A stretch of DNA of 64,000 nt from Patescibacteria group bacterium (GCA_018823885.1 JAHJHG010000006.1:10752-74751), one strand, 5' to 3'. Shown: positions 5,934 through 48,996, counted from the stretch's first letter. Translations and numbers: made by a program. The notes: generated by a model not told the origin, from the letters alone.

Positions 5934-6389
5934 ATGGTTGGTGTTGTTACATTTTGGGAAACTTTTATCGGAGTAGATAATCCAATCTACATTGGAGATA
6001 TATGGGCTAACACCATAAGACCACTTGGTGGTACCCATTTATTTTATGTTGACCAGCAAGGAATAGGAACACCGAGCATAGATGCTTCTATCGTTTCTAA
6101 AACCTATTCTACTTTCCAAGAAGTATTGGATGACAACCCCGATGCAACCTATGTGTTTCTTGAGGCTGAAAGGAGTATTCCAAAAGGTACCGATTTTACT
6201 TACTTAAAAGACTTTGTTCATCCCAAAGAAGACGTCATTTATGTTTTCGGCAAAGATAGTTCTGATGTGTTCACAGAGAACCTGCCACTTGAAGGAAATC
6301 ATGTTGTATCAATTACCACAAATGATAATCTTGTGCTCTGGTCATTAATAACAGTCGGTATCGTTCTGTATGATAGAAAGGTTAAATAA
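5934..6389 (+). CDS. Hypothetical protein, first gene of the beta-helix cluster; the start is uncertain
   Basis: The ORF runs 5670..6389, but its first 180 nt overlap the convergent 747-aa gene. The first in-frame ATG outside that overlap is at 5934 (151 aa). Its stop, TAA, overlaps the ATG of the next gene (taATGg), which suggests translational coupling. Confidence 0.35.
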   Translation: MVGVVTFWETFIGVDNPIYIGDIWANTIRPLGGTHLFYVDQQGIGTPSIDASIVSKTYSTFQEVLDDNPDATYVFLEAERSIPKGTDFTYLKDFVHPKEDVIYVFGKDSSDVFTENLPLEGNHVVSITTNDNLVLWSLITVGIVLYDRKVK

Positions 6390-8500
6390 TGGCATTTTCA
6401 ATTACATCAGATATGACCACTATTGATACTTGTTCTGATACCACAAACTGGTCAGGAACTATTACTCCTACGCAAGACACTGAGGTGTTTATTGAGGGCG
6501 CCGCCTCAGTCGGAATGGTAAAAGTATCACAGGGGAAATTTATTGAAAAATTTGATTATTATACTGAAAAAGCAAGCAATTATTATAATGCTTCTACTAA
6601 TCCTACTCATTTATATTTTTGGGTAAATGTCTCCAACGGCGGTGGACTTTATCCGCTGTCTAGTGGAACAGAATCTACAGAAGGCGGAGTTAGACTATAT
6701 ATGGAAGACAGCGCTGGTGCTTATGTTGAGTGGTACGTTGCAGGTTCAGACACTTACTCTGGTGGTTGGAGATGTTTCGTAGCCTACACCGATGCCGCGC
6801 CCAATAACTCATCTGGTTCAATTAACAAATCACAAATTCGATATTTTGGTGTAACTCTAAATATGCAAGCTAAAACCACAGCTAACGTGAGAAATGCTTG
6901 GATAGATTTTATCAGATATGGTTCAGGTCTCATTTGTAGTGGAACCGACACGGGCCAAATGACTTGGGATGATATTTATGCCGGTGATCTTGCGGGTCCA
7001 CATGGGGTTATTAGAAAAGAAGGTGGAATTTTCTTCGTACAAGGATCGGTCACCATAGGCGACAATATTGGAACAAGTGCAACAGATTTCAGTGATGCTA
7101 ACCAAGTTCTCGTATTTGAAGACGCAAACGTTTCAAGTACTTTATATAACATTACAATCGTCGGCAATGCCACAGGAGATACTGATTTTCAAATGGGAAC
7201 CAAATCGGGTACGGCAGGAATTTCAGGATGCATTATCAGGTCGGCTGGTATAAATAAATATGATTTCACTTGTACCGATACTGCAGTCGAAGAGCTGTTG
7301 TTATACGGGTGTACTTTTTATGATGCGGACGTTATTTCTCTCCCGGCCTATTCCGCCTCGGCTCCACTTAGAGAAGTATTAAACTGCAACTTTGAGGCGT
7401 GTAATCAGGTTGATCCTGATACTTGTACAGTAACTAATTGTAATTTCATTAACGCTGATGACAGAGGGTGTTTGATAGATACTTCATCTCACCATATTAC
7501 CGATTCAAATTTTATTGCCTGTCCAGACGCAGTACATATTAATACTGCTGATACTTATACTTTTTCTGGTCTTATCTTCACCAACAACACCTATGACGTA
7601 GAAAACTCATCTGCCGGTGTCGTAAATATTAACGTATCCGGAACTGGAGCGGCTTCCTCAGCTGAAAATACTGGTGGGGGCTCTACAAACTTTATTTCGT
7701 CCGTTGATGTAGATGCCAAAGTACTAAACGATGCAGGCTCAAATATAGAAAATGCGCAAGTGTATATTCAAAAATCCGATACTGGAAAACAATGGAATTA
7801 TGTTTCTCATTCTGGAAATGCATTAAACGACACTGACTTTGTGGTTACTGGAGCAATTGACGATGATTTGCCCTCATCAGGGTGGATACACGTTTGGGAC
7901 AAATCAGATAATTCCAAGCAGAATTATAGATATACCGGATGGGCAACGGCAACAGATACAACTTTTACACTAAAAACTAATGTAACAGGAAGTGCAACAA
8001 GTGAAGATGGAACAAGCCCAGAAATAAAATTAATTTCTACATCGTCTGATTTTATAGCAATGAAAACGGCTGGGACTATTGAAGAAGGAGACTCAATTTA
8101 TAATTCAACTGATTTAAGCTGGGCTATTGTAGACGAAATAGTAGATGCAGACAATGTAACTACAACTCCACTACAAGGTGGTTCGGACAATAAATGGCAA
8201 GCCAGTGATGGATTCAGTCTACATAAATTAGTAAAGGCTTATACTCTCACCGATGATAAAATAGACATTCCCCTATTCAACGGACAGACTGATTCAAACG
8301 GAGAAATATCAACCTCATATAACTATGGAGAAATTGGAAATCCTCCTGGTCAGTCTGGTTATACTTCCCTGCCCATTTGGATCAGAATTAGATCAAACCA
8401 AGGTACACCTAAATATATTCCATACAACACGAGCGGAACCATAACAGGAAGTGGATACGATTTAACGGCGGTTATCACAGAAGACGATGTAGCAACATAA
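6389..8500 (+). CDS. Right-handed parallel beta-helix repeat protein (pectate-lyase / tailspike-like fold)
   Basis: The 703-aa ORF has repeated short beta-helix rungs rich in N, C, T, I and V (NITIVGNATGD; CIIRSAGIN; NCNFEACNQVD; VTNCNFINADDRGCLIDTSSHHITDSNFIACPDAVHIN). There is no N-terminal signal peptide. Confidence 0.6.
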   Translation: MAFSITSDMTTIDTCSDTTNWSGTITPTQDTEVFIEGAASVGMVKVSQGKFIEKFDYYTEKASNYYNASTNPTHLYFWVNVSNGGGLYPLSSGTESTEGGVRLYMEDSAGAYVEWYVAGSDTYSGGWRCFVAYTDAAPNNSSGSINKSQIRYFGVTLNMQAKTTANVRNAWIDFIRYGSGLICSGTDTGQMTWDDIYAGDLAGPHGVIRKEGGIFFVQGSVTIGDNIGTSATDFSDANQVLVFEDANVSSTLYNITIVGNATGDTDFQMGTKSGTAGISGCIIRSAGINKYDFTCTDTAVEELLLYGCTFYDADVISLPAYSASAPLREVLNCNFEACNQVDPDTCTVTNCNFINADDRGCLIDTSSHHITDSNFIACPDAVHINTADTYTFSGLIFTNNTYDVENSSAGVVNINVSGTGAASSAENTGGGSTNFISSVDVDAKVLNDAGSNIENAQVYIQKSDTGKQWNYVSHSGNALNDTDFVVTGAIDDDLPSSGWIHVWDKSDNSKQNYRYTGWATATDTTFTLKTNVTGSATSEDGTSPEIKLISTSSDFIAMKTAGTIEEGDSIYNSTDLSWAIVDEIVDADNVTTTPLQGGSDNKWQASDGFSLHKLVKAYTLTDDKIDIPLFNGQTDSNGEISTSYNYGEIGNPPGQSGYTSLPIWIRIRSNQGTPKYIPYNTSGTITGSGYDLTAVITEDDVAT

Positions 8501-33289: not shown

Positions 33290-36511
<3,222 letters not shown>

Positions 36512-36825: not shown

Positions 36826-36898
36826 TGGGTCCGGATGGGATCGAACCATCGACCTCTTACTTATCAGGTAAGCGCTCTAGCCACTGAGCTACGGACCC
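36826..36898 (-). tRNA. tRNA-Ile (anticodon GAT)
   Basis: The reverse complement reads GGGTCCGTAGCTCAGTGGCTAGAGCGCTTACCTGATAAGTAAGAGGTCGATGGTTCGATCCCATCCGGACCCA. The anticodon loop is CTGATAA. Confidence 0.85.
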
Positions 36899-36990
36899 TG
36901 GAGCAACCAATAATTTACCATAAATTAGCCTTAAAAACAAACTATTAATATCTGCTACATTTTCAGAAAGCTACCATATATAATAGTTGT

Positions 36991-39210
36991 ATGACGAACT
37001 TAACAACGCTTCTTTTAAAACTTCCACGAAATACTGAAGTTACACCTGAAGCAGCTCAAACATTCCTCTCTGCATTAACACAAATAAATTCAGTTTCCTC
37101 TTTAAGAAAATTATTAGGCACAAAATCACAAGCCTTAGCTTTGGAAATTGTGCTTTTCGATCAACAAATAAGGTTTCAAATAACTTGCGACCGCGACCTG
37201 GTTCCTTTTCTTAAAACACAAATTCAGTCTAACTATCCCCTTGTCCTAATTGAGCAAACACAAGACCCATTAGTAAATAAAAGGCTTGAAATAAAAAAAC
37301 TCTGTCTTGCTAAGGGAAGTTATTACCCAATTGCAACTTTCGAATCATTTCAAGACATTGACCCTCTCTCCTCTGTTCTTTCTGTTTTATCAAAAGGCAA
37401 TCCTGATGAAGTCGGCCTTGTTCAGTTCGCCTTGGAGGCAACAGGTTCTTCTTGGCAAAGAAAAGGGGCTCTTTATGCAGAAAGAGGTACAAAGAATGAA
37501 GATGGTTCTTATTCCCCAAGATCGGACGCAAACATAATAACTGAGAAAATTTCTTACCCAGGTTTCAAGGTCACAATAAGGCTTGCTGCAAACACGAAAC
37601 AAACCCTTAGAGAACTTATATCTAGCTTTGGAGTATTCACAAGAGCTGATGGAAATAGGCTCTCATCGAAGAAAACTTCACAGCTAAAGAAAAAGTCTGC
37701 TCTAGCTTGCCTTTTACAAAGAAAGGTCGTAGATAACCAAATATTAAACATTCAAGAACTGGCAACTATTTGGCATCTTCCAAGCGATAAGATAAAAACC
37801 ACCTCCATTGCTTGGGGAACGTCTGTTCTTTCAGAGCCCCCCGAAAATTTACCTATCGCAATCGATAAGTCAGAAGATGAAAAAAGGGAAATAAACTACT
37901 TTGCCAAAACTCATTTCAAAAACAAAGAAACAATATTTGGTATTGAGACTCCAGACAGAAGACGCCACATATGGACCTTAGGAAAAACAGGTACCGGTAA
38001 ATCCACTCTAATTGCCAACATGGCCATCGATGATCTCAAGAAAGGTCGTGGTTTAGCCGTTATAGATCCCCATGGAGATCTTATTGAAATACTTCTTGAT
38101 TATATTCCGAAGAACAGAATTAACGATGTCATTTACTTCAATCCCGCAGATAGCCAACCTCCAACAATTAATCCTCTTGAGGTTAGAACTCGTGAGGAAG
38201 CAGAACTGGCTGCTTCCGGTCTTCTTTCAATATTCACAAAAATTTGGGCCAATGTCTGGTCCGCACGGATGGAATATATCTTAAGAAACTCATTCCTCAC
38301 TTTAGCGCAAACTCCTAACTCTACTTTGGCGGATGTTTTGAAACTTCTGGCAAATAGAAAATTCAGAGATCAAATCGTAGAAAAAATTGATGACCCAAAT
38401 CTTGTCCACTTCTGGAAAGAAGAATTCGATAAAATGCCGGAAAGACTTCAAAAGGAGGCTATTTCCCCTATTCAGAATAAGGTAGGCCAATTTGTCCTAT
38501 CACCTATGATTCGCGAAATAATCGGTCAACCAAAAGGTTCTTTTAGAATTGACGAGATCATGGATGGCGGAAAAATATTCCTTGCCAATTTATCACAAGG
38601 AAGAATCGGAGAAGATAATGCTAATTTACTTGGCGCCATGTTGATAACGAAAATCCAACTTGCGGCCATGCATCGAGTCGAGATAAGGGAACAGGAAAGA
38701 CGCGATTTCTATCTCTATGTCGATGAGTTCCAGAATTTTGCCACCACATCATTTATAAAAATCCTCTCAGAAGCCAGAAAATACAGACTTAACTTGATGC
38801 TTGCAAACCAATATATTGCTCAAATTCCCGAAGAGGTTCAAAAAGCAATATTAGGAAATATCGGAACAATGATTAGTTTTACCGCCGGTGCGGAAGACGC
38901 GCAAATTCTTCAAAAAGAGTTTTCAGAAGTCTTTACCGAAAACGACCTTGTCAACCTATCACGCTTCCAAGTGGCCATTAAACTTACTATAGATGGGCAA
39001 TCCAACAGACCCTTCTTAGCTCATACTCTGCCTCTTCCTGTCTCAAGAAACCAGAACAGGCCAAAAGTTATTACGGCCTCAAGGGAAAGATGGTCAAAAA
39101 GAGAAAAACCACAACAAGACCTGGAACAAAAGCCATATACACCTAAACAGAAACCATACACACCCAGACATCGACAATACCCACGTAGGAGCAAGTCCCA
39201 TCAAAGATAA
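36991..39210 (+). CDS. VirD4/TraG/TraD-like coupling-protein-type ATPase (FtsK/HerA superfamily) with a basic Pro-rich C-terminal tail
   Basis: The 739-aa ORF has a Walker A motif (LGKTGTGKSTL) and a Walker B motif (FYLYVDEFQNFAT), followed by an ANQY..Q segment typical of TraG/TraD C-terminal domains. It sits inside the 16S-23S spacer on the strand opposite the rRNAs. Confidence 0.6.
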   Translation: MTNLTTLLLKLPRNTEVTPEAAQTFLSALTQINSVSSLRKLLGTKSQALALEIVLFDQQIRFQITCDRDLVPFLKTQIQSNYPLVLIEQTQDPLVNKRLEIKKLCLAKGSYYPIATFESFQDIDPLSSVLSVLSKGNPDEVGLVQFALEATGSSWQRKGALYAERGTKNEDGSYSPRSDANIITEKISYPGFKVTIRLAANTKQTLRELISSFGVFTRADGNRLSSKKTSQLKKKSALACLLQRKVVDNQILNIQELATIWHLPSDKIKTTSIAWGTSVLSEPPENLPIAIDKSEDEKREINYFAKTHFKNKETIFGIETPDRRRHIWTLGKTGTGKSTLIANMAIDDLKKGRGLAVIDPHGDLIEILLDYIPKNRINDVIYFNPADSQPPTINPLEVRTREEAELAASGLLSIFTKIWANVWSARMEYILRNSFLTLAQTPNSTLADVLKLLANRKFRDQIVEKIDDPNLVHFWKEEFDKMPERLQKEAISPIQNKVGQFVLSPMIREIIGQPKGSFRIDEIMDGGKIFLANLSQGRIGEDNANLLGAMLITKIQLAAMHRVEIREQERRDFYLYVDEFQNFATTSFIKILSEARKYRLNLMLANQYIAQIPEEVQKAILGNIGTMISFTAGAEDAQILQKEFSEVFTENDLVNLSRFQVAIKLTIDGQSNRPFLAHTLPLPVSRNQNRPKVITASRERWSKREKPQQDLEQKPYTPKQKPYTPRHRQYPRRSKSHQR

Positions 39211-39255
39211 TTATTAACTTTAATAGTGCTTCCTCTCTTGAATAATCCCATAATC

Positions 39256-39283
39256 TTGCAATATTGCGCATATTTGTTATAAT
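39256..39283 (+). promoter_or_regulatory. Sigma70-like promoter candidate (TTGCAA - 16 nt - TATAAT)
   Basis: TTGCAA is at 39256-39261 and TATAAT at 39278-39283, about 200 nt upstream of the 201-aa secreted-protein gene. Confidence 0.3.
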
Positions 39284-39480
39284 TTTCTCAGTCTTTCCCT
39301 TCTGGCCTATCGCAGGTGAGATGTGGGAAAGATGTAAAGTTCTTTAATAACGGGAGAATATAATCTCCTCGGGACGCAATGGGTACTTAAAACCTTTTTT
39401 GAGTATCTTTTGCGTCTCGGGGGCAAAGGGCAGGAGACGTAAAAATCCAACCATTCTTATCAAAAAGGAGAATAGCAACT

Positions 39481-40086
39481 ATGAAGCGTTGGAAAATTGT
39501 AAGTTTGTTGGCTGTTTTCGCTCTTCTGATCACCGCTGTACCAGTATTTGCCATGGCAGAAAACGGAGCTCCATGGACCGGAGATCCAGATCCATATGCC
39601 TGTAACGTCTATCAGGACTGTTTCTACACAGTAACTGTCTGCATCGATGGTACAACCTACGAAGTAGGTATCTACTACGACCCAGCGACTCAAACCGCTG
39701 CGTACATGGAAGCAGACGCCTTAGGCTGGTCGGATATCGTCCTTACAATCGGCGCCTGTCCATATGTATGCGAAGTGAGACCGCTTTACCGAATGGTCAC
39801 TCTGGTTGATAACGACGCACCTGACTGGTATTTGTATGATGGTCGTTGTTACATTATCATGCACGAAGACGGAACTGTCCCCTCAGTTGATCGCCAGGCC
39901 GAAGTTTGTAGTGTTTGCGAGCATCCTGATTTCATCTATGAAGGAGATGGTCCCGCTCTTTACGACTCCTATGTCGGTGTGGATTGCTATGGCAACTACG
40001 TCTATGCAGATCCTCTGTGGGATCCTGAATGGATCAATCTGGATCCTGACAACATCTGTCACGAAGAATCCTGCATTACCAAATAG
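39481..40086 (+). CDS. Secreted cysteine/aromatic-rich hypothetical protein (short paralog)
   Basis: The 201-aa ORF has a signal peptide (MKRWKIVSLLAVFALLITAVPVFAMA) and 14 Cys. Its C-terminal module (CSVCEHPDFIYEGDG...YDSYVGVDCYGNYVY) resembles the C-terminus of the 695-aa neighbour. The GC content is visibly higher than in flanking DNA. Confidence 0.5.
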   Translation: MKRWKIVSLLAVFALLITAVPVFAMAENGAPWTGDPDPYACNVYQDCFYTVTVCIDGTTYEVGIYYDPATQTAAYMEADALGWSDIVLTIGACPYVCEVRPLYRMVTLVDNDAPDWYLYDGRCYIIMHEDGTVPSVDRQAEVCSVCEHPDFIYEGDGPALYDSYVGVDCYGNYVYADPLWDPEWINLDPDNICHEESCITK

Positions 40087-40208
40087 ATCCGAGGAAGGTG
40101 TCTGTACACTACTGCCCAAAAGGCACCTTCCTGCTCTACCCATTATTCTCCCGTTTTAATTTTTTTTAGATACTTCATGAACCTATAATTTGTAATTTTT
40201 ATCATTTG

Positions 40209-40217
40209 TGCTATAAT
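40209..40217 (+). promoter_or_regulatory. Extended -10 promoter element (TGCTATAAT) upstream of the 695-aa gene
   Basis: The element TGnTATAAT sits in an AT-rich 300-bp intergenic region. Confidence 0.3.
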
Positions 40218-40455
40218 TCTTCAAGAAATTTCCTACTCGCTTATTGTAAATGTAGTATGGAAAAATTCTAATTAAATTTTGTTCTTTAACAACAAGATAA
40301 TACCTTTTTGCGCTTCTTGCGCAAAAAAATGTAAATTGTCAAAAAACTCATAACAAAAGGAGGAAAAGCATGACAAAAGGATAGCCGCGTCTTCTGTCCT
40401 ATGGGGCTACTTCCCCAAATAGACGTAATCGTTTTTCAAAAAAGGAGAAAGTACG

Positions 40456-42543
40456 ATGAAGAAACTTTTTGTTATCGCATTGACACTGTTACTATTGTTA
40501 GTAGCAGCGGTCGCCGTATCAGCGGCCACTCCCCTCCCAGTATGTCCAGAAAGTGGAGGCGGCTGGACCAGGGTTAATAACGGAAATTGGACTGAAGTCA
40601 CGGGCGCGACTAACTACTGCTTTAAGTTCGGGAATGGTGCAGCGCCTGGAGCCGGACCATCATGCGCACCAGAACCTGCGCTCTACGGCTCGAGCTACCC
40701 GGGAGCAACACCCGCAAGTCGGTGTCCCCTAAATCACTGGGCATACTTTGTTCCCCCGGAACCTCAGTGTGGACCGAACGAGTGGTCAACTGAAGAGGGG
40801 TGTATACCCAAAACCGACATCTGTCATGCAACCGGTAGTTGGATTCACCCATTCCAACTGATCTCCCCTTCCAATATCGGCATTCTCATGGGGCATGTTG
40901 GTCCAGGCCATCAAAGTGGTGAGGACATCATCCCGCCGATCCCCTTCTATCTGCCAGCAGGTCAAAATTGGAATACGGTTGGGCAGGCTATCTTCAACAA
41001 CGGATGTGAATTGCCTGAGCCTCATGACTACGAGCTTGTGTTTGACTATCGTAACGAATGCGATGGTAATAATTACTATCGCATCATGCTGACGGATTTT
41101 GGTCAGTATGTCACCACTCTCTATCACAGTGGTTACTTCGTATGGTCTGAGCCGTTCTTGCTCGAAAACAAAACGTTTGGACCGTTTGATCTTGGCGAGT
41201 TTGGGACATTCCCTGCTGTAACGCTGGATGAACCCTTGGATTGCCAAGTCGAACATGAACTTGCGTTCGTGTATACGAATAAGTGCGTCGGTTGGTCCTA
41301 TGGGTATGTACTCGATGGCGTCGAAACAATCATCGCCTCTGGTGAATGGGTTGATCCATATGGTGAGCCGGAAAAGATCTTTGTAAGTTTTGAGGTCTTC
41401 CTACCCGCAGGTGAGATTGCAAATCGCAGTCCCATCTTCGGCCCGTGGTACCTTGTGGAACCAGCCGATTGCCAGATCTTCCGCACGTACAAGGCTCATC
41501 AAGCATATCTTGCGGATAGTTGCGAGGGAATCCATCGAGTGATCAACTTGTACGAAGGCCCAGCCAGTGATCCGTATGATGTATTGGTTGGCACTCTCTA
41601 CAACGAGACGGTTCTGTTCTCGGATCCTTTCAATCTCGAGACCATTCCGGCCGTCACCGTTGATGTCCCGGCAGCGTATGGCCCAGACTACACCTTCGCC
41701 GCTATGGACGAACCATCAACCTGTTACAGCACCTGTGATCTGACCACTCCGGTGGTACAAGATCCTGTTTGGAACCCGTGGTCACCATGGGTATACAATC
41801 CTATCAGCGGTCTTGAGGAAAGTTTCCACACAGGAACACAGACAACCTTATTCATGGACAGTGTCGATGAAGGGTATGTCTGTGGCTCATCGGTTGAAGA
41901 GTTATTCGAATCTCGAACACGGGAAGTGGATTACTCGCTAACCGTCGTTGGTTCCGGAGACTGCTTCAACTGGGAGTACGTCCCTGCTTTCACCAAGGGT
42001 GGTGAAATGACCGTCGTTGGCGATCTGACAGGCGAATGGCTGGACATCTATGGGCCTGAAACCGCTCCAGTACCAACCGTCACTGTTGTATGGCCAAGCG
42101 GCTATGCTCTGACAGTTACACCTGAAGCCGTTGTCAAAGATGTTGGCTGTATTCAATGCCGAATCACGCCTTACTACCCACAAGCGTCATACCATGACGC
42201 AGCTGCTCCTGGCGTTTACTGGCAAGGTCCATTCGGTCTAGGAGCTGGTGTGTGTAGCGTTATTCATCCTGAAGGCCAAGTACCTTCAGCTGAGCGCGTA
42301 ACCACGATCTGCTCCCTCTGCCCCGATGTGTTTGAAGGTGGTTATATCTATCAGGTTAACCACATGTTCTATGACGGCTGGGTCTACAAGGTCCAGTGCT
42401 ACGGTCAAGAACCTCACTACACGTACATGGGGTACAACTGGGACGCATACGTCAGAATTGGCGAATACACCACAGAAGGTGAACGCCTCTCCTGCCGCGT
42501 TCAAGGTTGTGCGGACTGGATTCACGAAAACATGGTGGAATAG
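40456..42543 (+). CDS. Secreted cysteine/aromatic-rich hypothetical protein (long paralog)
   Basis: The 695-aa ORF has a signal peptide (MKKLFVIALTLLLLLVAAVAVSAA), many Cys, Trp, Tyr and Pro residues, and a C-terminal module (CSLCPDVFEGGYIYQVNHMFYDGWVYKVQCYG...) related to the 201-aa protein. The GC content is higher than in flanking genes. Confidence 0.55.
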   Translation: MKKLFVIALTLLLLLVAAVAVSAATPLPVCPESGGGWTRVNNGNWTEVTGATNYCFKFGNGAAPGAGPSCAPEPALYGSSYPGATPASRCPLNHWAYFVPPEPQCGPNEWSTEEGCIPKTDICHATGSWIHPFQLISPSNIGILMGHVGPGHQSGEDIIPPIPFYLPAGQNWNTVGQAIFNNGCELPEPHDYELVFDYRNECDGNNYYRIMLTDFGQYVTTLYHSGYFVWSEPFLLENKTFGPFDLGEFGTFPAVTLDEPLDCQVEHELAFVYTNKCVGWSYGYVLDGVETIIASGEWVDPYGEPEKIFVSFEVFLPAGEIANRSPIFGPWYLVEPADCQIFRTYKAHQAYLADSCEGIHRVINLYEGPASDPYDVLVGTLYNETVLFSDPFNLETIPAVTVDVPAAYGPDYTFAAMDEPSTCYSTCDLTTPVVQDPVWNPWSPWVYNPISGLEESFHTGTQTTLFMDSVDEGYVCGSSVEELFESRTREVDYSLTVVGSGDCFNWEYVPAFTKGGEMTVVGDLTGEWLDIYGPETAPVPTVTVVWPSGYALTVTPEAVVKDVGCIQCRITPYYPQASYHDAAAPGVYWQGPFGLGAGVCSVIHPEGQVPSAERVTTICSLCPDVFEGGYIYQVNHMFYDGWVYKVQCYGQEPHYTYMGYNWDAYVRIGEYTTEGERLSCRVQGCADWIHENMVE

Positions 42544-42567
42544 CTCTGAGATAGCTTAGCCATGTGT

Positions 42568-42609
42568 GAGGTGTCACTCAACTATGTACAACCGAGTGGC
42601 ACCTCATTT
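42568..42609 (+). terminator. Hairpin terminator candidate after the 695-aa gene
   Basis: A 12-bp stem (GAGGTGTCACTC / GAGTGGCACCTC, one G.U pair) is followed by ATTTCC. Confidence 0.35.
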
Positions 42610-42753
42610 CCAAATTACGACAATTACATTCAAAATCAATACAACAAATTATATTTATCGCAAATATGAATATTTGTTTTTTGGTTTTACGGTATTATCT
42701 TGTTTCGCGTCTACTGAATATCAGTACTGAAGAGTCTTCCAAAAGGCAAGACG

Positions 42754-42790
42754 AAACGCAAAAACCCGCTTTAAAAAAGCGGGTTTCTTT
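42754..42790. terminator. Bidirectional rho-independent terminator (AAAAACCCGCTTTAAAAAAGCGGGTTTCTTTGTTTT)
   Basis: A perfect 8-bp GC-rich stem is flanked by an A-tract and a T-tract. It is located about 120 nt beyond the 16S 3' end on the minus strand and about 210 nt beyond the 695-aa gene on the plus strand. Confidence 0.6.
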
Positions 42791-42910
42791 GTTTTAACAA
42801 TCAAAATACGACTAGAAGCGGGTTCGGTTTTTTTACAGTTTAACCGTGACCTAAAAGCTGGGTGTATACCTACCCTCAGATAAATCTGAAAGCAGTCGTG
42901 ATACTCCTTA

Positions 42911-44372
42911 GAAAGGAGGTGATCCATCCGCTCCTTCCAGAACGGATACCTTGTTACGACTTAATTCTTGTCGCTGGTCTCACCTTCCCCCGATTCAATC
43001 GAGGTTCGGGTGCTTCCAACTTCACTAACTTGACGGGCGGTGTGTACAAGACCTGAGAACGTATTCACCGCGGCTTGGCTGATCCGCGATTACTACCAAT
43101 TCCACGTTCATGAGGGCGAATTGCAGCCCTCAATCCCCACTGAGAAGCCGTTTGATGGGATTAGCTCCGTGTTACCACTTGGCAACCCATTGTCGGCTCC
43201 ATTGTAGCATGTGTGTAGCCCTGGACATAAGGGCCATGCTGACTTAACGTCGTCCCCGCCTTCCTCCCGAGAATGACTCGGGCAGTCCCGTATGAATATT
43301 CAACATACGGCGAGGGTTGCGCTCGTTACCCCACTGAAGGGAACACCTCACGACACGAGCTGACGATAGCCATGCAGCACCTGTTCTAGTACCTTCGAAA
43401 GAGTCACCATTTCTGGTGATGTGCAACTAGTATGTCAAGTCCAGGTAAGGTTCTTCGGTTCGTCTCGAATTAAACCACATGCTCCACTGGTTGTGCAGGT
43501 CCCCGTCAATTCCTTTGAGTTTTAGTCTTGCGACCGTACTCCCCAGGCGGCTCGCTTAACGCGTTAGCTTGCGAGACGGAAAAATAAATTCCCCATCCCT
43601 AGCGAGCATCGTTTACGGCTAGGACTACAGCGGTCTCTAATCGCTTTCGCTACCCTAGCTTTCGTTCCTCAGCGTCAAGAAATGCCTAGTTACCCGCCTT
43701 CGCCCTTGGTGTTCTTGTCGATATCAACGGATTTCACCCCTACACCGACAATTCCAGTAACCCCGACATTCTTCAATTCTGGTAGTATTATGCCCCTTCC
43801 CGAGGTTAAGCCCCGGTCTTTGAAACATAACTTACCAAAAAGCCTACGAACTCTTTACGCCCAATAAATCCGGACAACGCTTGCACCCTACGTATTACCG
43901 CAGCTGCTGGCACGTAGTTAGCGGGTGCTTATTCTCCAGTCGGTCTCCCTTCTGGCAAAAGAGGTTTACAACCCTAAGGCCTTCATCCCTCACGCGGCGT
44001 CGCGGCGTCAGACTTTCGTCCATTGCGCACGATTCCCGGTTGCTGCCACCCGTAGGTGTAAGGCCCGTGTCTCAGTGCCTTTCTGGGGGAACACGCTCTC
44101 ACGCCCCCTACCCGTCGTAGCCTTGGTAGGCTATTACCCTACCAACAAGCTGATGGGCCGCAGGCTCCTCCCTCGGCGGGCAGTTACGCCCTTTCATCCT
44201 TGGATCTTATGCGGTATTAACTACTCTTTCGAGTAGGTATTCCACACCAAGGGGTAGATTCCTACGTGTTACTCAGCCGTTCGCGACTTACTATCCGAAG
44301 ATAGCTCGTTCCACTTGCATGCCTAAGGCACGCCGCCAGCGTTCGTCCTGGGCCAGGATCAAACCCTCAAAT
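42911..44372 (-). rRNA. 16S ribosomal RNA
   Basis: The 3' end reads ...GGATCACCTCCTTTC (complement at 42911-42924) and the 5' end reads GAGGGTTTGATCCTGGCCCAGGACGAACGCTGGCGGCGTGCC. The internal conserved blocks (GTGCCAGCAGCTGCGGTAATAC, etc.) are present. Confidence 0.9.
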
Positions 44373-44477
44373 AGTGACGAGTTTTGAACCTAAACATGCA
44401 TAAGCACGAATAAGTATTCGTCTTACGCTTCCAGTCATATTTTGATTGTCAAAGTGCGCACATTTTTGAGACTAAAA

Positions 44478-44530
44478 AACCGCCCAGATGGACGGCTTCA
44501 CAAGGCTTTTTAAGCCATCTGGTATTTCGT
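44478..44530 (-). terminator. Rho-independent terminator on the minus strand upstream of the 16S promoter region
   Basis: On the minus strand the sequence reads CCAGATGG-CTTAAAAAGCCTTGTGAAGCCGTC-CATCTGGG followed by CGGTTTTTT. Confidence 0.45.
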
Positions 44531-44613
44531 CTTACATCATGTGCATCGTTATTATAACACACGATTCAATGGGGTCAACGAGAAGTAAATAATTGTTTTT
44601 GCAGCCCTCCAAC

Positions 44614-44690
44614 CCTACTTCTTTTCCATCACTTTGGTCATCATAAACTCGAGAAGATCGCTCCTAGAGATTAAATAGACACTATATTTT
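44614..44690 (-). repeat. Orphan copy of the 3' end (last 24 codons plus stop) of the HTH gene at 45106..45291
   Basis: The copy is about 80% identical over about 75 bp to 45108-45183. Its reading frame is conserved (...KYSVYLISRSDLLEFMMTKVMEKK* against ...KYGVYLVSRSDLLEFMMSKVMEER*), but it is preceded by a stop only 10 codons upstream. Confidence 0.6.
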
Positions 44691-44730
44691 ATTCAGCAAT
44701 AACGAAGTTGACTTGTCCTATTTTCTTTCA

Positions 44731-45045
44731 TTAAACCTCCCTTAACTCCATCCCCTCTTTATGAAGCCACTCGGCAAGAAAATCTGATACTTTAGTTCCG
44801 GAAATACCTTTCTTGGTATAAATTTGTATTACAGAAGGATTTTGTCCAGAAATTATCTGGGCATTTCTTTCAAAATTTCCTAAACCCTCTCTTAATCTTT
44901 CGGGAAGATTGTCCGTAAACTCAATAACACATCTATCACTGTCAACTGGAACTATTACTAAATCGATTTCTCCTTCTATTAACAGCTGAGGAACATCTTT
45001 CCAAGGTACATTCGTAGAATATCTTATTCCTTCTTTTTCAATCAT
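44731..45045 (-). CDS. Hypothetical protein, located between the duplicated HTH-gene 3' ends
   Basis: No motif was recognised in this 104-aa ORF. Confidence 0.4.
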   Translation of the reverse strand: MIEKEGIRYSTNVPWKDVPQLLIEGEIDLVIVPVDSDRCVIEFTDNLPERLREGLGNFERNAQIISGQNPSVIQIYTKKGISGTKVSDFLAEWLHKEGMELREV

Positions 45046-45105
45046 ATAATAATCGTGTAATTACTTTCCTGCAAGATAAACTAGACAAAATTAAAGGCTT
45101 TCAAT

Positions 45106-45291
45106 TCACCTTTCTTCCATCACTTTAGACATCATGAATTCGAGGAGATCACTCCTGGAGACTAAATAGACGCCGTATTTACCGGCCAGTTTTGTTGCAC
45201 GAAGTTTTTTCTCTCTAATCCAACGCCTAATCGTATCAGGGTGTTTTTTGAGATATTTGGCAGTTTGTTTAACTGTCAGATAATCCTTCAC
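45106..45291 (-). CDS. Excisionase/MerR-like helix-turn-helix DNA-binding protein
   Basis: The 61-aa ORF reads LTVKQTAKYLKKHPDTIRRWIREKKLRATKL, which is typical of excisionase-family HTH_17 domains. Confidence 0.6.
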   Translation of the reverse strand: MKDYLTVKQTAKYLKKHPDTIRRWIREKKLRATKLAGKYGVYLVSRSDLLEFMMSKVMEER

Positions 45292-45325
45292 AATACCTTA
45301 GTATATCATAATGTATCAGTGGTAC

Positions 45326-45943
45326 CTAGGGAGCACAATTAGGCCAAATAGAAGCATGGCCTATTGAATAAGCATAGGCAGCCGTTTGAACTGCCTCTTC
45401 GGCATTAAGACGCAAATCAATATCAGTATCCTCCCCCATTAATAGTCTGTATTTAATCCATGTATTGGGAGAGAACTGAAAAAGACCAGCATAATTGAGT
45501 TTTATCGCCAAAGGATTAAACCCAGATTCACAAACAGCCAGATGTCTCAAAACATTAGGGTCAACACCATATTGACCAGCAAATCTTTCAATAAATCCAT
45601 GAATTTCCTCAGAACTGAAAACAGGTTGCTGAATTGGTGTAGGACTAGGTGAAGGTGTTGAAGTGGGCTTTGGTGTTTGAGTTGGTTCGGAAGTTGGTGA
45701 AGGCGTAGGGCTAGGTGTCATCACTAAAGAAGAATCATGAGTTAAACTACCATCTCCGGCAACATAATATTCTGAAAGAACCTCACCTTTTAAAAAAAAA
45801 TCCTCCCCAAAAAAACTCATACCAAAATACCCAAGCAAGAAACCCATCAAAAGAGGGGCAACAAGAAATATTTTCCTGAACATATTAACGCCCCTCATTA
45901 AACCACAATGTAAATAGATTAGAAAGCGAGCAGAGTGTTTCAA
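45326..45943 (-). CDS. Secreted lytic transglycosylase (SLT domain) with Pro/Thr/Ser-rich linker
   Basis: The 205-aa ORF has an N-terminal TM/signal segment and a PTPSPTSEPTQTPKPTSTPSPSPTP linker. Its SLT signature reads LAVCESGFNP...YAGLFQFSPNTW (catalytic E-S and GLxQ-like motif). Confidence 0.6.
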   Translation of the reverse strand: MKHSARFLIYLHCGLMRGVNMFRKIFLVAPLLMGFLLGYFGMSFFGEDFFLKGEVLSEYYVAGDGSLTHDSSLVMTPSPTPSPTSEPTQTPKPTSTPSPSPTPIQQPVFSSEEIHGFIERFAGQYGVDPNVLRHLAVCESGFNPLAIKLNYAGLFQFSPNTWIKYRLLMGEDTDIDLRLNAEEAVQTAAYAYSIGHASIWPNCAP

Positions 45944-46253
45944 AAAATGATGAGCATGCCGATCTTGGCCTTTTTGCTCCTATAACTAGATGTTGTACCT
46001 GCAGTTATAATCCGAAAAAATCATTCATACGGGTCTGAGCCCTATCTATCCCTAGAAGTGTTCCAAACTAAAACTAAGCGCAATAAATAGAATACTATAG
46101 AAGTGGTCGACCGCGTTCTTTTATTATGTGTGAATCATAAATATCAACACAATACGATTAAGCTTTGGATAATTCATATATACAACATTGAAATAGGTTT
46201 TGATATCAAGAAATATTTAGACATCTCTAAATACACCCCAATTTACAAGTAAA

Positions 46254-48611
46254 TTATTTCAACCTTAGGGACAACTCTCTCTTAAGAGAATTTAAATTTT
46301 GTAGCGTCTCTGAAATTTCAAGCGTTCTCCACTTCCATTGTTTGGCCTTATTCAGGTTTTTGTCTGACACAATATTGACAACAGAACACACAGAATACTT
46401 TCTGTCATTAAATCCTATCTTTATATATTCATCTTGATCTTCTTGGTCAAAGTCAAAACCAACTAATATATGTACGCCATTTTTTTCGATAAGGGTATAT
46501 CTATCTTTAAAATCATAATGTTCCTCAATAAAGTGATAAAATGGAGCAAGCTTCGGATCGAGGTCCCACATAATTCCTCCAACGTTCTCTTCCATCGAGT
46601 GTGCACTAGAGTCAGAATTTTCTTCAACCACTTTTGTTGTAATCTCAAAAAACACTTTGTTTCTCAAATTATATAAAATGTCCTCAATTCTCTCTGAATA
46701 ATTTTGTACCTGACTTTTCCTTTCGGCTCGAGGTTTTTCCTTCTTAATTTTGTTTGCCAAAGCTAAATACATAGTATGCTCATCTACATATTCTTTAAAT
46801 GAACTAAGCCCAGAAGAATCAATCTGGGATTTTGTCTTATCAAGTTTCTCAAACCAATCCAAAAATCCTTCTTCATATTTTGTTTTTAAAGTCTTTAATC
46901 TCACGCTCTCAAGGTCGGGAAAACTAAATTTATCCTTTAAAGAATAAATACACACACTTGTTTCAAGTTCTTTGCCGTCTTTATCTGTGGCTTTCCGTTT
47001 TTCCTCTTTAGAATCAATTATTCCGTACATTTCATTCCTTTCAGCCCTCAATAGAAAATCCTCAATTGCACCTGCAAAATCTTGTCTTGATGCCTCATCA
47101 AGATCATCCAATCTTAATCTTTTTTGTATATCTTTTGGCAATATGCCCAAGAAATCGTCTTCTTTTATCTCGATTGATTTGTTACTTTGTAAAATTCCGC
47201 ACACCTCACGCATAACCAAATATAATTTTTCATTGGTCTCGTATTCTCCTGGGTATAATTTTTCATCGTAAGATGCATTTAAAAACACCTGTAGGGCGGC
47301 ACAGGTCTCCCAGTCCTCTGGTATATTGCCCTTGGATAATCCCTCAGCAGAATACACTTTTACCGAAGGTGTTTCATCCTTGTTAAAATTAATGAAATTC
47401 TCTATCAGATTATGTGTGTCAAAAATGTGGTTTTTAGCTTGCCAACTAACAAAAGATATAAATTTACTAAAAGACTTTGCATACTCCTCCGCAATATGGC
47501 CTTTTACGTAACTCATTACAATATCTTTAATGTCTGCATAATACATTGGCGAAAGAAACAGTCTGTCTGTGAACAAAGTGTACACATTTGAATACGGGTC
47601 GGTTTTCCGTTTGTTTTCTAAAATATGAAAAAAGTCATCGCTTCCCACAAATACAAAGATTGAGTTTGATAAAGTAAACAAATTTTTTAGCGACTTAACA
47701 ACTTTGTAAATTGTATGGGTGGCAACAGCATCCTCATTTAATTCTTCTGCGCTATCAAGTTTGTCCAATTCATCTATCACAAAAACAACTTTGTAGTCCT
47801 TGTTCAGCTCCACAAGCACTTGATTTAAACCAAACTCAATTGTATCGGATGACAAGTCGTATTTCGCGATACCTGTTTTTCCAGTTTTTTTATCTATTCC
47901 TGATTCTTCTCCTTCAACCGATCCATTTGTGAATGTAAAATTCAAATTAACGTTTAACAGAATCAAAATAAAGGCAGCTCCAATCAAAAACAAGATAATC
48001 ATTACCCAAGGATTAGGATTTGGGTAAAATCTAGTCAACATGTCCGCAAGCAGCCAAAAGCCAAAACCACCACTCAACCATTTCAAAAATAACTTCACCG
48101 ATGATCCTATGTCCCACTTGATGATGGTTTCCTGTGTTTCTTTTTCTTCGTGATATGAAGATTGTTTTTTAACTAACTCACTTATATTTTTATCTTTGAA
48201 CTCAGAATAATAACTTTTTTGATATAAACCTTCCAATATATCTTTTGTGTTTGACTTAACGCCTTTCCACTTGCTTTTATTTAGTGTCAAATACAAAGAT
48301 CGAGTAAGAGAATTTAATACTTTTTTCCTAATACTACCCCCTTTGGCAATACTTGCTAGTGTGGCCTCAAGAACAATTAATGACTTTTTGTTTTTTGAGT
48401 GTTTTATCTGTCTTAGAACCTCTTTCACGAATGACGTTTTGCCAATTCCCCTGGCTCCTCCAATCAATACACATGCGGCCTTACGATTTAAAATAACGTT
48501 TTTGAATTTTTGTATCAATTCGTCCCGACCTTTAAAAACGCTTTTGTCACTATCTACATCAATAGGGTCCCGATAATTTGTTCTTATATCAAACTTAAGT
48601 ATTGTTGCCAT
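46254..48611 (-). CDS. KAP-family P-loop NTPase (Walker A and B split by inserted transmembrane helices)
   Basis: The 785-aa ORF has a Walker A motif (IGGARGIGKTSF) near residue 50. TM helices (GFWLLADMLTRF...VMIILFLIGAAFILILLNVNL) lie around residues 190-235, and a Walker B motif (VVFVIDELDKLD) near residue 290. A large C-terminal domain follows. This is the KAP NTPase topology. Confidence 0.65.
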   Translation of the reverse strand: MATILKFDIRTNYRDPIDVDSDKSVFKGRDELIQKFKNVILNRKAACVLIGGARGIGKTSFVKEVLRQIKHSKNKKSLIVLEATLASIAKGGSIRKKVLNSLTRSLYLTLNKSKWKGVKSNTKDILEGLYQKSYYSEFKDKNISELVKKQSSYHEEKETQETIIKWDIGSSVKLFLKWLSGGFGFWLLADMLTRFYPNPNPWVMIILFLIGAAFILILLNVNLNFTFTNGSVEGEESGIDKKTGKTGIAKYDLSSDTIEFGLNQVLVELNKDYKVVFVIDELDKLDSAEELNEDAVATHTIYKVVKSLKNLFTLSNSIFVFVGSDDFFHILENKRKTDPYSNVYTLFTDRLFLSPMYYADIKDIVMSYVKGHIAEEYAKSFSKFISFVSWQAKNHIFDTHNLIENFINFNKDETPSVKVYSAEGLSKGNIPEDWETCAALQVFLNASYDEKLYPGEYETNEKLYLVMREVCGILQSNKSIEIKEDDFLGILPKDIQKRLRLDDLDEASRQDFAGAIEDFLLRAERNEMYGIIDSKEEKRKATDKDGKELETSVCIYSLKDKFSFPDLESVRLKTLKTKYEEGFLDWFEKLDKTKSQIDSSGLSSFKEYVDEHTMYLALANKIKKEKPRAERKSQVQNYSERIEDILYNLRNKVFFEITTKVVEENSDSSAHSMEENVGGIMWDLDPKLAPFYHFIEEHYDFKDRYTLIEKNGVHILVGFDFDQEDQDEYIKIGFNDRKYSVCSVVNIVSDKNLNKAKQWKWRTLEISETLQNLNSLKRELSLRLK

Positions 48612-48755
48612 AAAAAACCTGCCTTCAGGCAGGTCAACTGATTCGATTGTATATCCCTTTTCCTACAGAAACAAGCGGAGCGCTCTATACAACTGTTTTT
48701 AAATTTAACTGTTAGGCAGCTTTTGGAACTATACCCAAGAATCCTGCCTATCCTG

Positions 48756-48826
48756 CTGCGGGACAGGGATTTGAACCCCAATTTCCGCTTCCAAAGAGCG
48801 GCGTGCTACCATTACACCATCCCGCA
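48756..48826 (-). tRNA. tRNA-Gln (anticodon TTG)
   Basis: The reverse complement reads TGCGGGATGGTGTAATGGTAGCACGCCGCTCTTTGGAAGCGGAAATTGGGGTTCAAATCCCTGTCCCGCAg. It has a U1-A72 pair, a G73 discriminator and the anticodon loop CTTTGGA. Confidence 0.75.
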
Positions 48827-48835
48827 AGGAAAATG

Positions 48836-48907
48836 TGAGCCCGGAAGGATTCGAACCTTCGACCATCAGCTTAAAAGGCTGTTGCTCTGCCACTGAGCTA
48901 CGGGCCC
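48836..48907 (-). tRNA. tRNA-Lys (anticodon TTT)
   Basis: The reverse complement reads GGGCCCGTAGCTCAGTGGCAGAGCAACAGCCTTTTAAGCTGATGGTCGAAGGTTCGAATCCTTCCGGGCTCA. The anticodon loop is CTTTTAA. Confidence 0.75.
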
Positions 48908-48923
48908 ATGTGTATTTTTGTTG

Positions 48924-48996
48924 TGACCCCACAGGGACTCGAACCCTGGTTCCAGGCCTGAAAAGCCCGTGTCCTAGGCCACTAGACGATGGGGCC
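48924..48996 (-). tRNA. tRNA-Glu (anticodon TTC)
   Basis: The reverse complement reads GGCCCCATCGTCTAGTGGCCTAGGACACGGGCTTTTCAGGCCTGGAACCAGGGTTCGAGTCCCTGTGGGGTCA. The anticodon loop is TTTTCAG. Confidence 0.75.

Follow-up and report, generated by a model that had tools for sequence, protein, structure and literature searches.

Organization of the locus

The window analysed here is a stretch of 64,000 nucleotides (nt) from a Patescibacteria group bacterium (GCA_018823885.1, JAHJHG010000006.1:10752-74751), in which the interval between the 16S rRNA gene and a cluster of tRNA genes encodes a KAP-type P-loop nucleoside triphosphatase (NTPase), a lytic transglycosylase and a small helix-turn-helix (HTH) protein of the HTH_17 family whose 3' coding end is repeated nearby. 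An earlier note, made from the sequence alone, had taken the 44.7-48.6 kb segment for a small mobile island. On the minus strand the order is tRNA-Glu/Lys/Gln, the 785-aa open reading frame (ORF) of the KAP-type protein, the transglycosylase gene with its SLT domain, the 61-aa HTH_17 gene, a 104-aa ORF, about 360 nt of non-coding DNA and the 16S rRNA gene (Table 1). We read the region not as a single mobile island but as a chromosomal backbone that is conserved and interrupted by two variable slots, slot 1 being occupied by a KAP cassette and slot 2 by gene debris that includes a relic of an HTH_17 gene; we give this reading as a whole a probability of roughly 0.7.

DNA matching the locus is carried by contig JAHIWH010000012.1 of the Patescibacteria metagenome-assembled genome (MAG) GCA_018816285.1, and three other assemblies are nearly identical (L001-L004; L-numbers denote loci on related metagenomic contigs). 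Contigs of relatives were reached through homologues of the 104-aa protein, and the comparison of slot 1 draws on about ten metagenomic contigs and not on a pangenome. The loci L012-L014, L015 and L016 hold SpoU, the tRNA cluster, SLT, HTH_17, the 104-aa gene and 16S in the order of the window, which is partly kept in L017 and L027 as well, and the alignment shows that the 16S promoter is also retained in relatives. The conserved backbone therefore consists of SpoU, tRNA-Glu/Lys/Gln, SLT, HTH_17, the 104-aa gene, the 16S promoter and 16S, and since this order is common to the related contigs, the SLT, HTH_17 and 104-aa genes are core genes and not cargo. The idea of an island holds for the KAP segment, which is missing from a relative, and fails for the three small genes, whose order is conserved beside 16S; conservation of the gene order in relatives, which the earlier note had named, if universal, as the observation that would speak against an island, was found for the backbone genes and not for the KAP segment. 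As stated in that note, no integrase is visible: no integrase or recombinase Pfam domain was called among the genes within 10 kb on either side.

Table 1. Features of the locus between the tRNA cluster and the 16S rRNA gene, with positions counted from the first letter of the window.
Feature	Position	Strand	Basis
tRNA-Glu(ttc), tRNA-Lys(ttt), tRNA-Gln(ttg) cluster	48755..48996	-	ARAGORN, Rfam
GC-rich hairpin and T-run directly upstream of the KAP ATG	48616..48635	-	terminator scan
785-aa KAP-type P-loop NTPase	46254..48611	-	Pfam KAP_NTPase and AAA_16, motif order, AlphaFold2 (AF2) model
Putative single-gene accessory cassette, 2,805 bp	45950..48754	-	blastn against L012; GC 0.33-0.35
Right end of cassette, CCAAGATCGGCATGCTCAT	45950..45968	-	resembles right end of L015 cargo
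Lytic transglycosylase, SLT domain	45326..45883	-	Pfam SLT E=1.5e-7
61-aa HTH_17 (excisionase-fold) DNA-binding protein	45106..45291	-	Pfam and NCBIfam
Repeat copy A, last 75 nt of HTH_17 gene	45106-45180	-	repeat search
104-aa gene, function unassigned	44731..45045	-	ORF call and conservation
5' stub ATGAAAGAAA... of small gene Y	44690..44731	-	alignment and Y ORFs in relatives
Repeat copy B, codons 38-61 and stop of HTH_17 gene without its 5' two-thirds (putative pseudogene fragment)	44615..44689	-	blastn/HMM
Stretch between copy B stop and -35 box, like Z 3' end or promoter-upstream sequence	44579..44614	-	alignment
16S rRNA promoter TTGACC, 16 nt, TG-TATAAT	44551..44578	-	promoter scan, 11/12 matches, and alignment
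16S rRNA gene, right flank of locus	42912..44374	-	Rfam RF00177, 1404.8 bits

A single-gene cassette beside tRNA-Gln

The first variable slot lies between tRNA-Gln and the SLT gene, and its boundaries could be placed exactly by blastn against L012, where window 49695-48755 corresponds to positions 6144-7085 and window 45949-44722 to positions 7086-8324. These two blocks are contiguous in L012, window 48755 and 45949 falling on its positions 7085 and 7086, and nothing separates tRNA-Gln from SLT there. The 2,805 extra bases of the window begin one base past the tRNA-Gln 3' end (48755), have the KAP gene as their sole gene and are poorer in GC than the flanks (0.33-0.35 vs about 0.38-0.44). Of the supposed 44.7-48.6 kb island this is the only segment missing from a relative, and the suggestion of accessory DNA next to the tRNA cluster, made in the earlier note, is upheld. 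Other cargo fills the slot elsewhere, namely a 597-aa protein matching the fused AriAB model of PARIS in L015 (PADLOC E=1.6e-36), a 344-aa SDH-type ClpP-like protease plus two ORFs in L027, and, at the equivalent site of more distant relatives, methyltransferases, MATCAP and a DEAD-box helicase. Conserved flanks with differing content among relatives are what defines a tRNA-adjacent hotspot. Given that the KAP gene is absent or replaced in relatives and that its homologues occur in unrelated contexts (see below), this gene alone appears to be a strain-specific insertion at such a hotspot and to behave as a single-gene accessory cassette.

The cassette would have come by horizontal transfer into this hotspot, and any recombinase and att sites would since have decayed. 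When the 30 nt with which the L015 cargo ends at the junction are set in fixed register against the final 30 nt of tRNA-Gln, 17/30 positions agree (p~5e-4), and the right end of the window's cassette resembles the right end of the L015 cargo (p~0.0035). The same fixed-register comparison of the cassette right end with the tRNA-Gln 3' end gave 10/30, which is not significant, and a local-alignment search of the cassette's right border for a copy of the tRNA-Gln 3' end returned nothing above shuffles. The likenesses of the L015 right end thus hint at an old tRNA-targeted integration with a decayed attR, which the last nucleotides of the cassette may represent, the mode of insertion being unproven.

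The KAP-type protein

The sole product of the cassette matches Pfam PF07693 KAP_NTPase over residues 31-289 (29.7 bits vs a cut-off of 20) and AAA_16 (35.9 vs 32.6), and precomputed PF07693 matches exist for most of its homologues. It carries the Walker A sequence GGARGIGKTS (GKT at residue 57) and the Walker B sequence VVFVIDELD (DELD at 280), between which lie two hydrophobic segments (~174-192 and 203-221); in 20 homologues this order is kept, the residues G52, G55, G57, K58, D280, E281 and D283 are invariant, and Kyte-Doolittle peaks at ~170-192 and 195-221 recur in nearly all, the sequence of the segments itself not being conserved. The AF2 model (predicted local distance difference test score, pLDDT, 79.9; predicted template modelling score, pTM, 0.70) places helices at 170-195 and 201-219. 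The predicted segments therefore have the position that defines the KAP family, with transmembrane (TM) helices that interrupt the NTPase domain between the two Walker motifs, and the topology described in the earlier note is confirmed at this level. A hairpin inserted between the motifs would anchor the protein in the membrane, and the C-terminal half, which is specific to the family, would be governed by the binding or hydrolysis of ATP.

This C-terminal region of about 390 aa (386 residues) was found in 29 of 1.84 billion cluster representatives, always behind the same ATPase wherever the match was full-length, which makes the family, as judged from its sequences, a rare and self-contained one. 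Homologues of the KAP protein elsewhere adjoin an EcoRI restriction-modification pair, large serine recombinases, a SocA/Panacea module or prophage remnants, which are unrelated contexts, and the closest homologue (L025, 73% identity) has only the ORF and ~12-14 nt of flank in common with the window. The PADLOC models gave no significant defence match for the KAP protein, its sole match being a spurious one of 16 bits to 'cll' in the C-terminal region; the NCBIfam model Avs1b scored 14 bits vs a cut-off of 1500. Experiments on stand-alone KAP NTPases with uncharacterised C-terminal regions have demonstrated protection against phages that depends on the Walker B motif as well as on the C-terminal region, and single-gene KAP NTPases have been linked to serine recombinases (PMC13552941). 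On the grounds of family membership, variable genomic context and this experimental precedent, the protein is most likely a stand-alone, membrane-anchored, NTP-controlled anti-phage protein or one directed against mobile genetic elements.

The GC-rich hairpin with a T-run that directly precedes the KAP start codon is terminator-like; it perhaps ends the tRNA transcript or acts as a leader structure. A similar hairpin stands at the KAP start in L025 (~60-97), with another stem (CTGCCC...GGGCAG vs CCTGCC...GGCAGG) and in another context. Since the same arrangement is there built from a different stem, the hairpin seems to travel with the KAP gene, whose expression it may control.

The duplicated 3' end of the HTH_17 gene

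The HTH_17 protein fits PF12728 with E=9.8e-15 and the TIGR01764 'excise' model with E=5e-12 (46 bits vs a cut-off of 28.8). It has 95 homologues in a set of 5.8 billion proteins, most of them of 61-66 aa and 60-93% identical, and relatives whose protein is as little as 74% identical still have the gene in its place, with the SpoU/tRNA cluster on one side and 16S on the other. An excisionase (Xis) would be expected inside a mobile element, beside an integrase and with a patchy distribution, none of which was found for this gene. The excisionase fold proposed in the earlier note thus stands, and a role as the Xis of an element does not, as the gene is, by its synteny, a conserved chromosomal core gene with no integrase nearby.

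That the last 24 codons and the stop of this gene are duplicated downstream with the frame intact proved correct. Positions 45108-45180 and 44617-44689 form a 73-nt direct repeat with 59/73 (81%) identity and 491-nt spacing, and in the quantitative comparison that had been suggested the local alignment scored 38.5, well above background, as none of 200 dinucleotide shuffles exceeded 15. With the HTH gene as query against the 64-kb window, the second copy was recovered by blastn (E=1e-14) and tblastn (80% over 25 aa, E=1.7e-9), and the hidden Markov model (HMM) of the family covers copy B at its positions 38-61 with E=1e-15. The frame of copy B is open through its own stop (KYSVYLISRSDLLEFMMTKVMEKK, then stop), and the likeness has abrupt limits, codon 38 at one end and the stop at the other. 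Copy B is 100% identical in the four independent assemblies L001-L004 and is therefore not an assembly artefact; it is absent from all sampled relatives and occurs only in the genome lineage of the window. Direct repeats of the HTH 3' end were searched downstream of the gene in ten loci, among which only the window has a strong one, L029 (14 nt, 5/200 shuffles) and L019 (7/200) being marginal. Copy B was also considered as a whole HTH gene with an internal deletion, for an in-frame ATGAAAGAA precedes it; this was rejected, as the ATG is the conserved start of the small gene Y and homology in nhmmer and HMM searches begins only at codon 38.

The surroundings of copy B are made of other gene stubs. 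The start of Y overlaps the stop codon of the 104-aa gene (TAATG), and TAATGAAAGAAA, kept at the end of that gene in all relatives, is this start. Y is intact in L017, L018 and L027 and reduced to a stub in L012, L015 and L016; another small gene, Z, follows Y in L018 and the Y stub in L012. The content of slot 2, the interval from the 104-aa gene to the 16S promoter, thus varies from Y (L017, L027) through Y and Z (L018) or Y stub and Z (L012) to the Y stub only (L015/L016), and in the window it consists of the first ~40 nt of Y, HTH codons 38-61 with the stop, ~35 nt resembling the end of Z, and the promoter. The stretch next to the -35 box aligns globally above shuffles with L012 (p=0.007) and L018 (p=0.04). 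As the start of Y and this Z-end-like stretch flank it, copy B appears to lie at a deletion junction among other gene stubs, and slot 2 would be a turnover zone for small genes that here holds debris only. An in-frame nucleotide comparison of the Z C-terminus with the HTH 3' end gave 31-32/75 (p 0.003-0.008 before correction for 15 tests), and neither HMM nor BLOSUM scoring supported a derivation of the Z C-terminus from the HTH 3' end.

Copy B is roughly equidistant from copy A (59/75 identical) and from the orthologues of five other genomes (62-65/75). When changes are polarised against these orthologues, the A branch has 8, of which 6 are at third codon positions, and the B branch 7, distributed 3/1/3 over the codon positions and including the stop codon and the family-invariant Gly40 (S in B); only 2 derived changes are shared. 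The raw A-B differences (4/2/10 by codon position) had suggested at an early stage that the repeat diverged under purifying selection, a reading that we tempered because the third-position bias comes mainly from copy A. The residues of copy B are otherwise typical of the family and have their nearest protein match in P0054, at 22/24 aa; P0054 was discarded as a donor, its nucleotide identity being only 55/75 and its context different.

In our reading copy B is what truncation has left of a second HTH_17 gene, which would have been a paralogue or else an allele imported from a sister lineage. The B branch is shorter than neutral decay would give, which favours a second HTH gene that was active until fairly recently and was then truncated. 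Its parent would have lost the 5' two-thirds in the same kind of deletion as Y and Z; an imported allele could have come by homology-facilitated illegitimate recombination anchored in the promoter/16S region. The fragment itself is probably without function.

Alternative explanations

The arrangement of the repeat invites an explanation along the lines of the earlier note, namely that an integrative element entered the HTH 3' end site-specifically, bringing the 104-aa gene, or the whole 44.7-48.6 kb, with its own version of the target 3' end, and lost its integrase, the two copies being attL and attR. As in the attL/attR pairs left by tyrosine recombinases in classical genomic islands and prophages, a gene 3' end is directly repeated in the same orientation and frame, with an intact gene upstream and cargo in between; the gene has the excisionase fold, L027 lacks the 104-aa gene and passes from HTH directly to Y, and in L029 a 14-nt direct repeat over the HTH stop codon flanks an insert of ~260 nt with a 54-aa ORF. 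Unlike such att sites, however, the copies have no exact core in common and differ by 19%, the distal one is flanked by the Y and Z stubs and not by the sequence that follows HTH, no recombinase lies within 10 kb, and the KAP and SLT genes are outside the bracketed segment. That segment is orthologous in relatives: the 104-aa gene is present without a second HTH fragment in L012-L018, and its adjacency to HTH without the repeat extends to at least five relatives and to a distant MAG (46% identity), so that the exactly bracketed segment was not seen to come and go as a unit; L027, without the 104-aa gene, has no repeat either. Identity to L012, L015 and L016 is ~0.85-0.89 over the HTH 5' part, the HTH 3' part and the intergenic region, reaching 0.93 in the 104-aa gene, and a sliding comparison that runs from HTH to the end of the 104-aa gene gives 0.81-0.93 throughout and does not change abruptly at 45180, where foreign DNA between the repeats would have left a step. 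On account of the uniform divergence, the adjacency without the repeat and the lack of a long identical core we reject the att explanation for the HTH repeat as very unlikely; for the KAP cassette at tRNA-Gln an att duplication is possible and unproven. The 75-nt duplication together with the independent repeat in L029, and the variety of unrelated small ORFs next after HTH from one genome to another (the 104-aa gene, Y, ORFs of 86 aa and 54 aa), point to a broader variant, with the HTH_17 3' end, just upstream of the rRNA promoter, serving in Microgenomates/Patescibacteria as a recurrent recombination site for the insertion and exchange of small cassettes without a recognisable integrase, which we consider improbable. 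A local origin deserves more attention, copy B having been copied from the window's own HTH gene, either by tandem duplication of the 491-bp unit and a later deletion or as filler templated where the loss of Y-Z was joined, and having then decayed neutrally. The source is only 491 bp away, copy B sits exactly at the junction between the two stubs, its changes fall on all codon positions and hit the invariant glycine and the stop, whereas 6 of the 8 changes of copy A are third-position ones, and one shared-derived site (position 57) is clean. Against this, copy B is no closer to copy A than to the orthologues of other genomes, its branch of ~7 changes per 75 nt is shorter than expected under neutrality when copy A has accumulated 6 synonymous changes in ~25 third positions, and its almost entirely family-typical residues suggest selection until fairly recently. 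We therefore hold a local rearrangement to be rather unlikely and prefer the truncated relic of a second HTH_17 copy.

For the KAP protein, the alternative is a non-defence membrane NTPase that works in the cell envelope or in secretion together with the adjacent SLT protein and a TrwB/VirD4-like ATPase encoded nearby. Secretion and pilus systems are known to come with lytic transglycosylases, the SLT gene follows KAP directly on the same strand and the VirD4/TrwB-like ATPase gene is ~7 kb away; however, L012 holds SLT and the TrwB-like gene without KAP, and no SLT or TrwB neighbour occurs at any KAP homologue examined, which makes such a role highly improbable. Several observations also weigh against our own interpretation of the locus. 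No curated defence model in PADLOC matches the KAP protein, the defence role resting on family and context, no homologue occurs in phage or plasmid collections, and what distant relatives carry at the equivalent site has no obvious defensive role. The window shows no significant att repeat, nor does the right end of its cassette significantly resemble the tRNA-Gln 3' end. As for the relic, the second HTH copy is inferred, since slot 2 contains a complete second HTH gene in none of the relatives sampled, and a fragment of 75 nt is too short to tell whether it goes back to an old local duplication, a decayed paralogue or an imported allele. Two HTH copies with 84% identity are found on separate contigs (L026 and L029) of one MAG, so that two copies could coexist in a genome if they are a true paralogue pair and the bin is not mixed.

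Comparison with known systems

The KAP protein resembles the single-gene KAP anti-phage proteins described in PMC13552941 (EF_KAP and metagenomic KAPs) in being one large ORF with predicted TM helices between Walker A and B and a long C-terminal region without a recognisable domain, its gene standing alone in variable, recombinase-rich neighbourhoods. It is unlike them in that its sequence matches neither these proteins nor any PADLOC model, in its host, which belongs to the Patescibacteria (candidate phyla radiation, CPR), and in the tiny size of its C-terminal family, with 29 representatives. Older relatives of the single-gene KAPs are PifA of the F plasmid and Tmn, a TM NTPase of the YobI family (PMC13001434). 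In Foldseek searches the predicted ATPase core superposes best on Orc1/Cdc6, RdrA (RADAR), MuB and CED-4, with E 8e-5 to 1e-3 for RdrA, Orc1/Cdc6 and STAND ATPases; with TM-scores of 0.2-0.4, identities of 9-13% and a membrane hairpin in none of the latter, this is a likeness of fold class only.

Slot 1 is comparable to the core defence hotspots of Pseudomonas (cDHS, PMC10250203) and to the defence islands of E. coli (PMC10121019), with which it shares core flanks, a content that differs between related genomes, recognised defence genes among the occupants (PARIS-like AriAB, L015) and the frequent absence of mobility genes. It differs from them in taking up one gene at a time (0-2.8 kb), in lying ~4 kb from the rRNA operon of a tiny genome, and in that the cargo of distant relatives is not clearly defensive. 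The locus thus combines two known phenomena, a tRNA-adjacent accessory/defence slot, here with a rare KAP, and a pseudogene fragment in a decaying slot for small genes.

Other features of the region

The SLT protein, borne out as a lytic transglycosylase by Pfam, has an N-terminal hydrophobic anchor or signal followed by a Pro/Thr/Ser-rich linker; its gene was called with a length of 185-188 aa in L001-L004, L012-L016 and L027, which makes it a backbone gene in close relatives. The 104-aa gene follows HTH directly in close relatives with 70-85% identity, the 46% homologue being that of a Microgenomates MAG. Its product matched nothing in Pfam, PADLOC, NCBIfam or PHROG, nor, as a single-sequence query, in GTDB genomes, and the moderately confident AF2 model (pLDDT 66.8) had its best Protein Data Bank match, not significant, among DHHA1-like domains (E=0.03). 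Downstream of HTH in L029 (~140-420, compared with L026 ~1500-1545), the 14-nt direct repeat is AGATAATCYTCAAT, and after its second copy the sequence rejoins the order of L026, both loci being from the same MAG.

In the DNA that separates the 16S promoter from the mature 16S 5' end, at ~44475-44530, the minus strand has a long stem CCAGATGG...CCATCTGG, then GCGG and a T-run, which matches L012, L015 and L016 almost base for base; despite its terminator-like look it is probably a leader or processing structure. On the other side of 16S, ~6 kb of opposite-strand ORFs (36898-42912) part it from tRNA-Ile/tRNA-Ala/23S/5S, comprising the 739-aa TrwB/VirD4-like DUF87/DUF8128 ATPase, a 201-aa ORF and a Cys-rich 695-aa ORF (40456-42543). 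The latter has a GC content of 0.50-0.52 vs ~0.40 in the genome and is replaced in L012 by ORFs of 326 aa and 267 aa, so that its position looks like another variable slot. A group I intron interrupts the 23S rRNA gene (34307-34536; Rfam RF00028, 65.8 bits), with a similar match after 16S in L021. Introns and insertions are common in rRNA genes of the CPR, and the ~840-900 nt that interrupt the blastn match to the window's 16S towards the 3' end of the gene in L029 (2296-3207) and L030 (6954-7791) are probably of this kind.

The tRNA cluster itself is a site of rearrangement, given that in L016 (1862-2920) tRNA-Lys is inverted and an unannotated 230-aa ORF lies between tRNA-Lys and tRNA-Gln, overlapping the start of the latter, and that a methyltransferase gene lies between the same two tRNA genes in L019. 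A third variable position is seen only in L015 (3002-3967), where NikA-like and NrdR genes stand between SpoU and tRNA-Glu. The 16S of L027 (CAYXBV010000006.1), a contig deposited under the name 'uncultured Gammaproteobacteria bacterium', has 97% identity to that of the window, with which L027 also has tRNA-Gln, SLT and HTH synteny in common, and this contig or its bin is probably misassigned.

Implications

A duplicated 3' end in an excisionase-fold gene near a tRNA cluster looks like an integration scar, yet set beside the relatives it proves to be gene debris, and this negative outcome for the HTH repeat calls for caution in the calling of islands from a single sequence. Hotspots for defence and accessory genes have been mapped mainly in well-sampled Proteobacteria. 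The locus described here has the same architecture in miniature in a minimal-genome CPR bacterium, with one gene swapped beside a tRNA gene a few kb from the single rRNA operon, and the rare KAP-type family that occupies it, with a C-terminal module of its own, joins the candidates for membrane-associated immunity.

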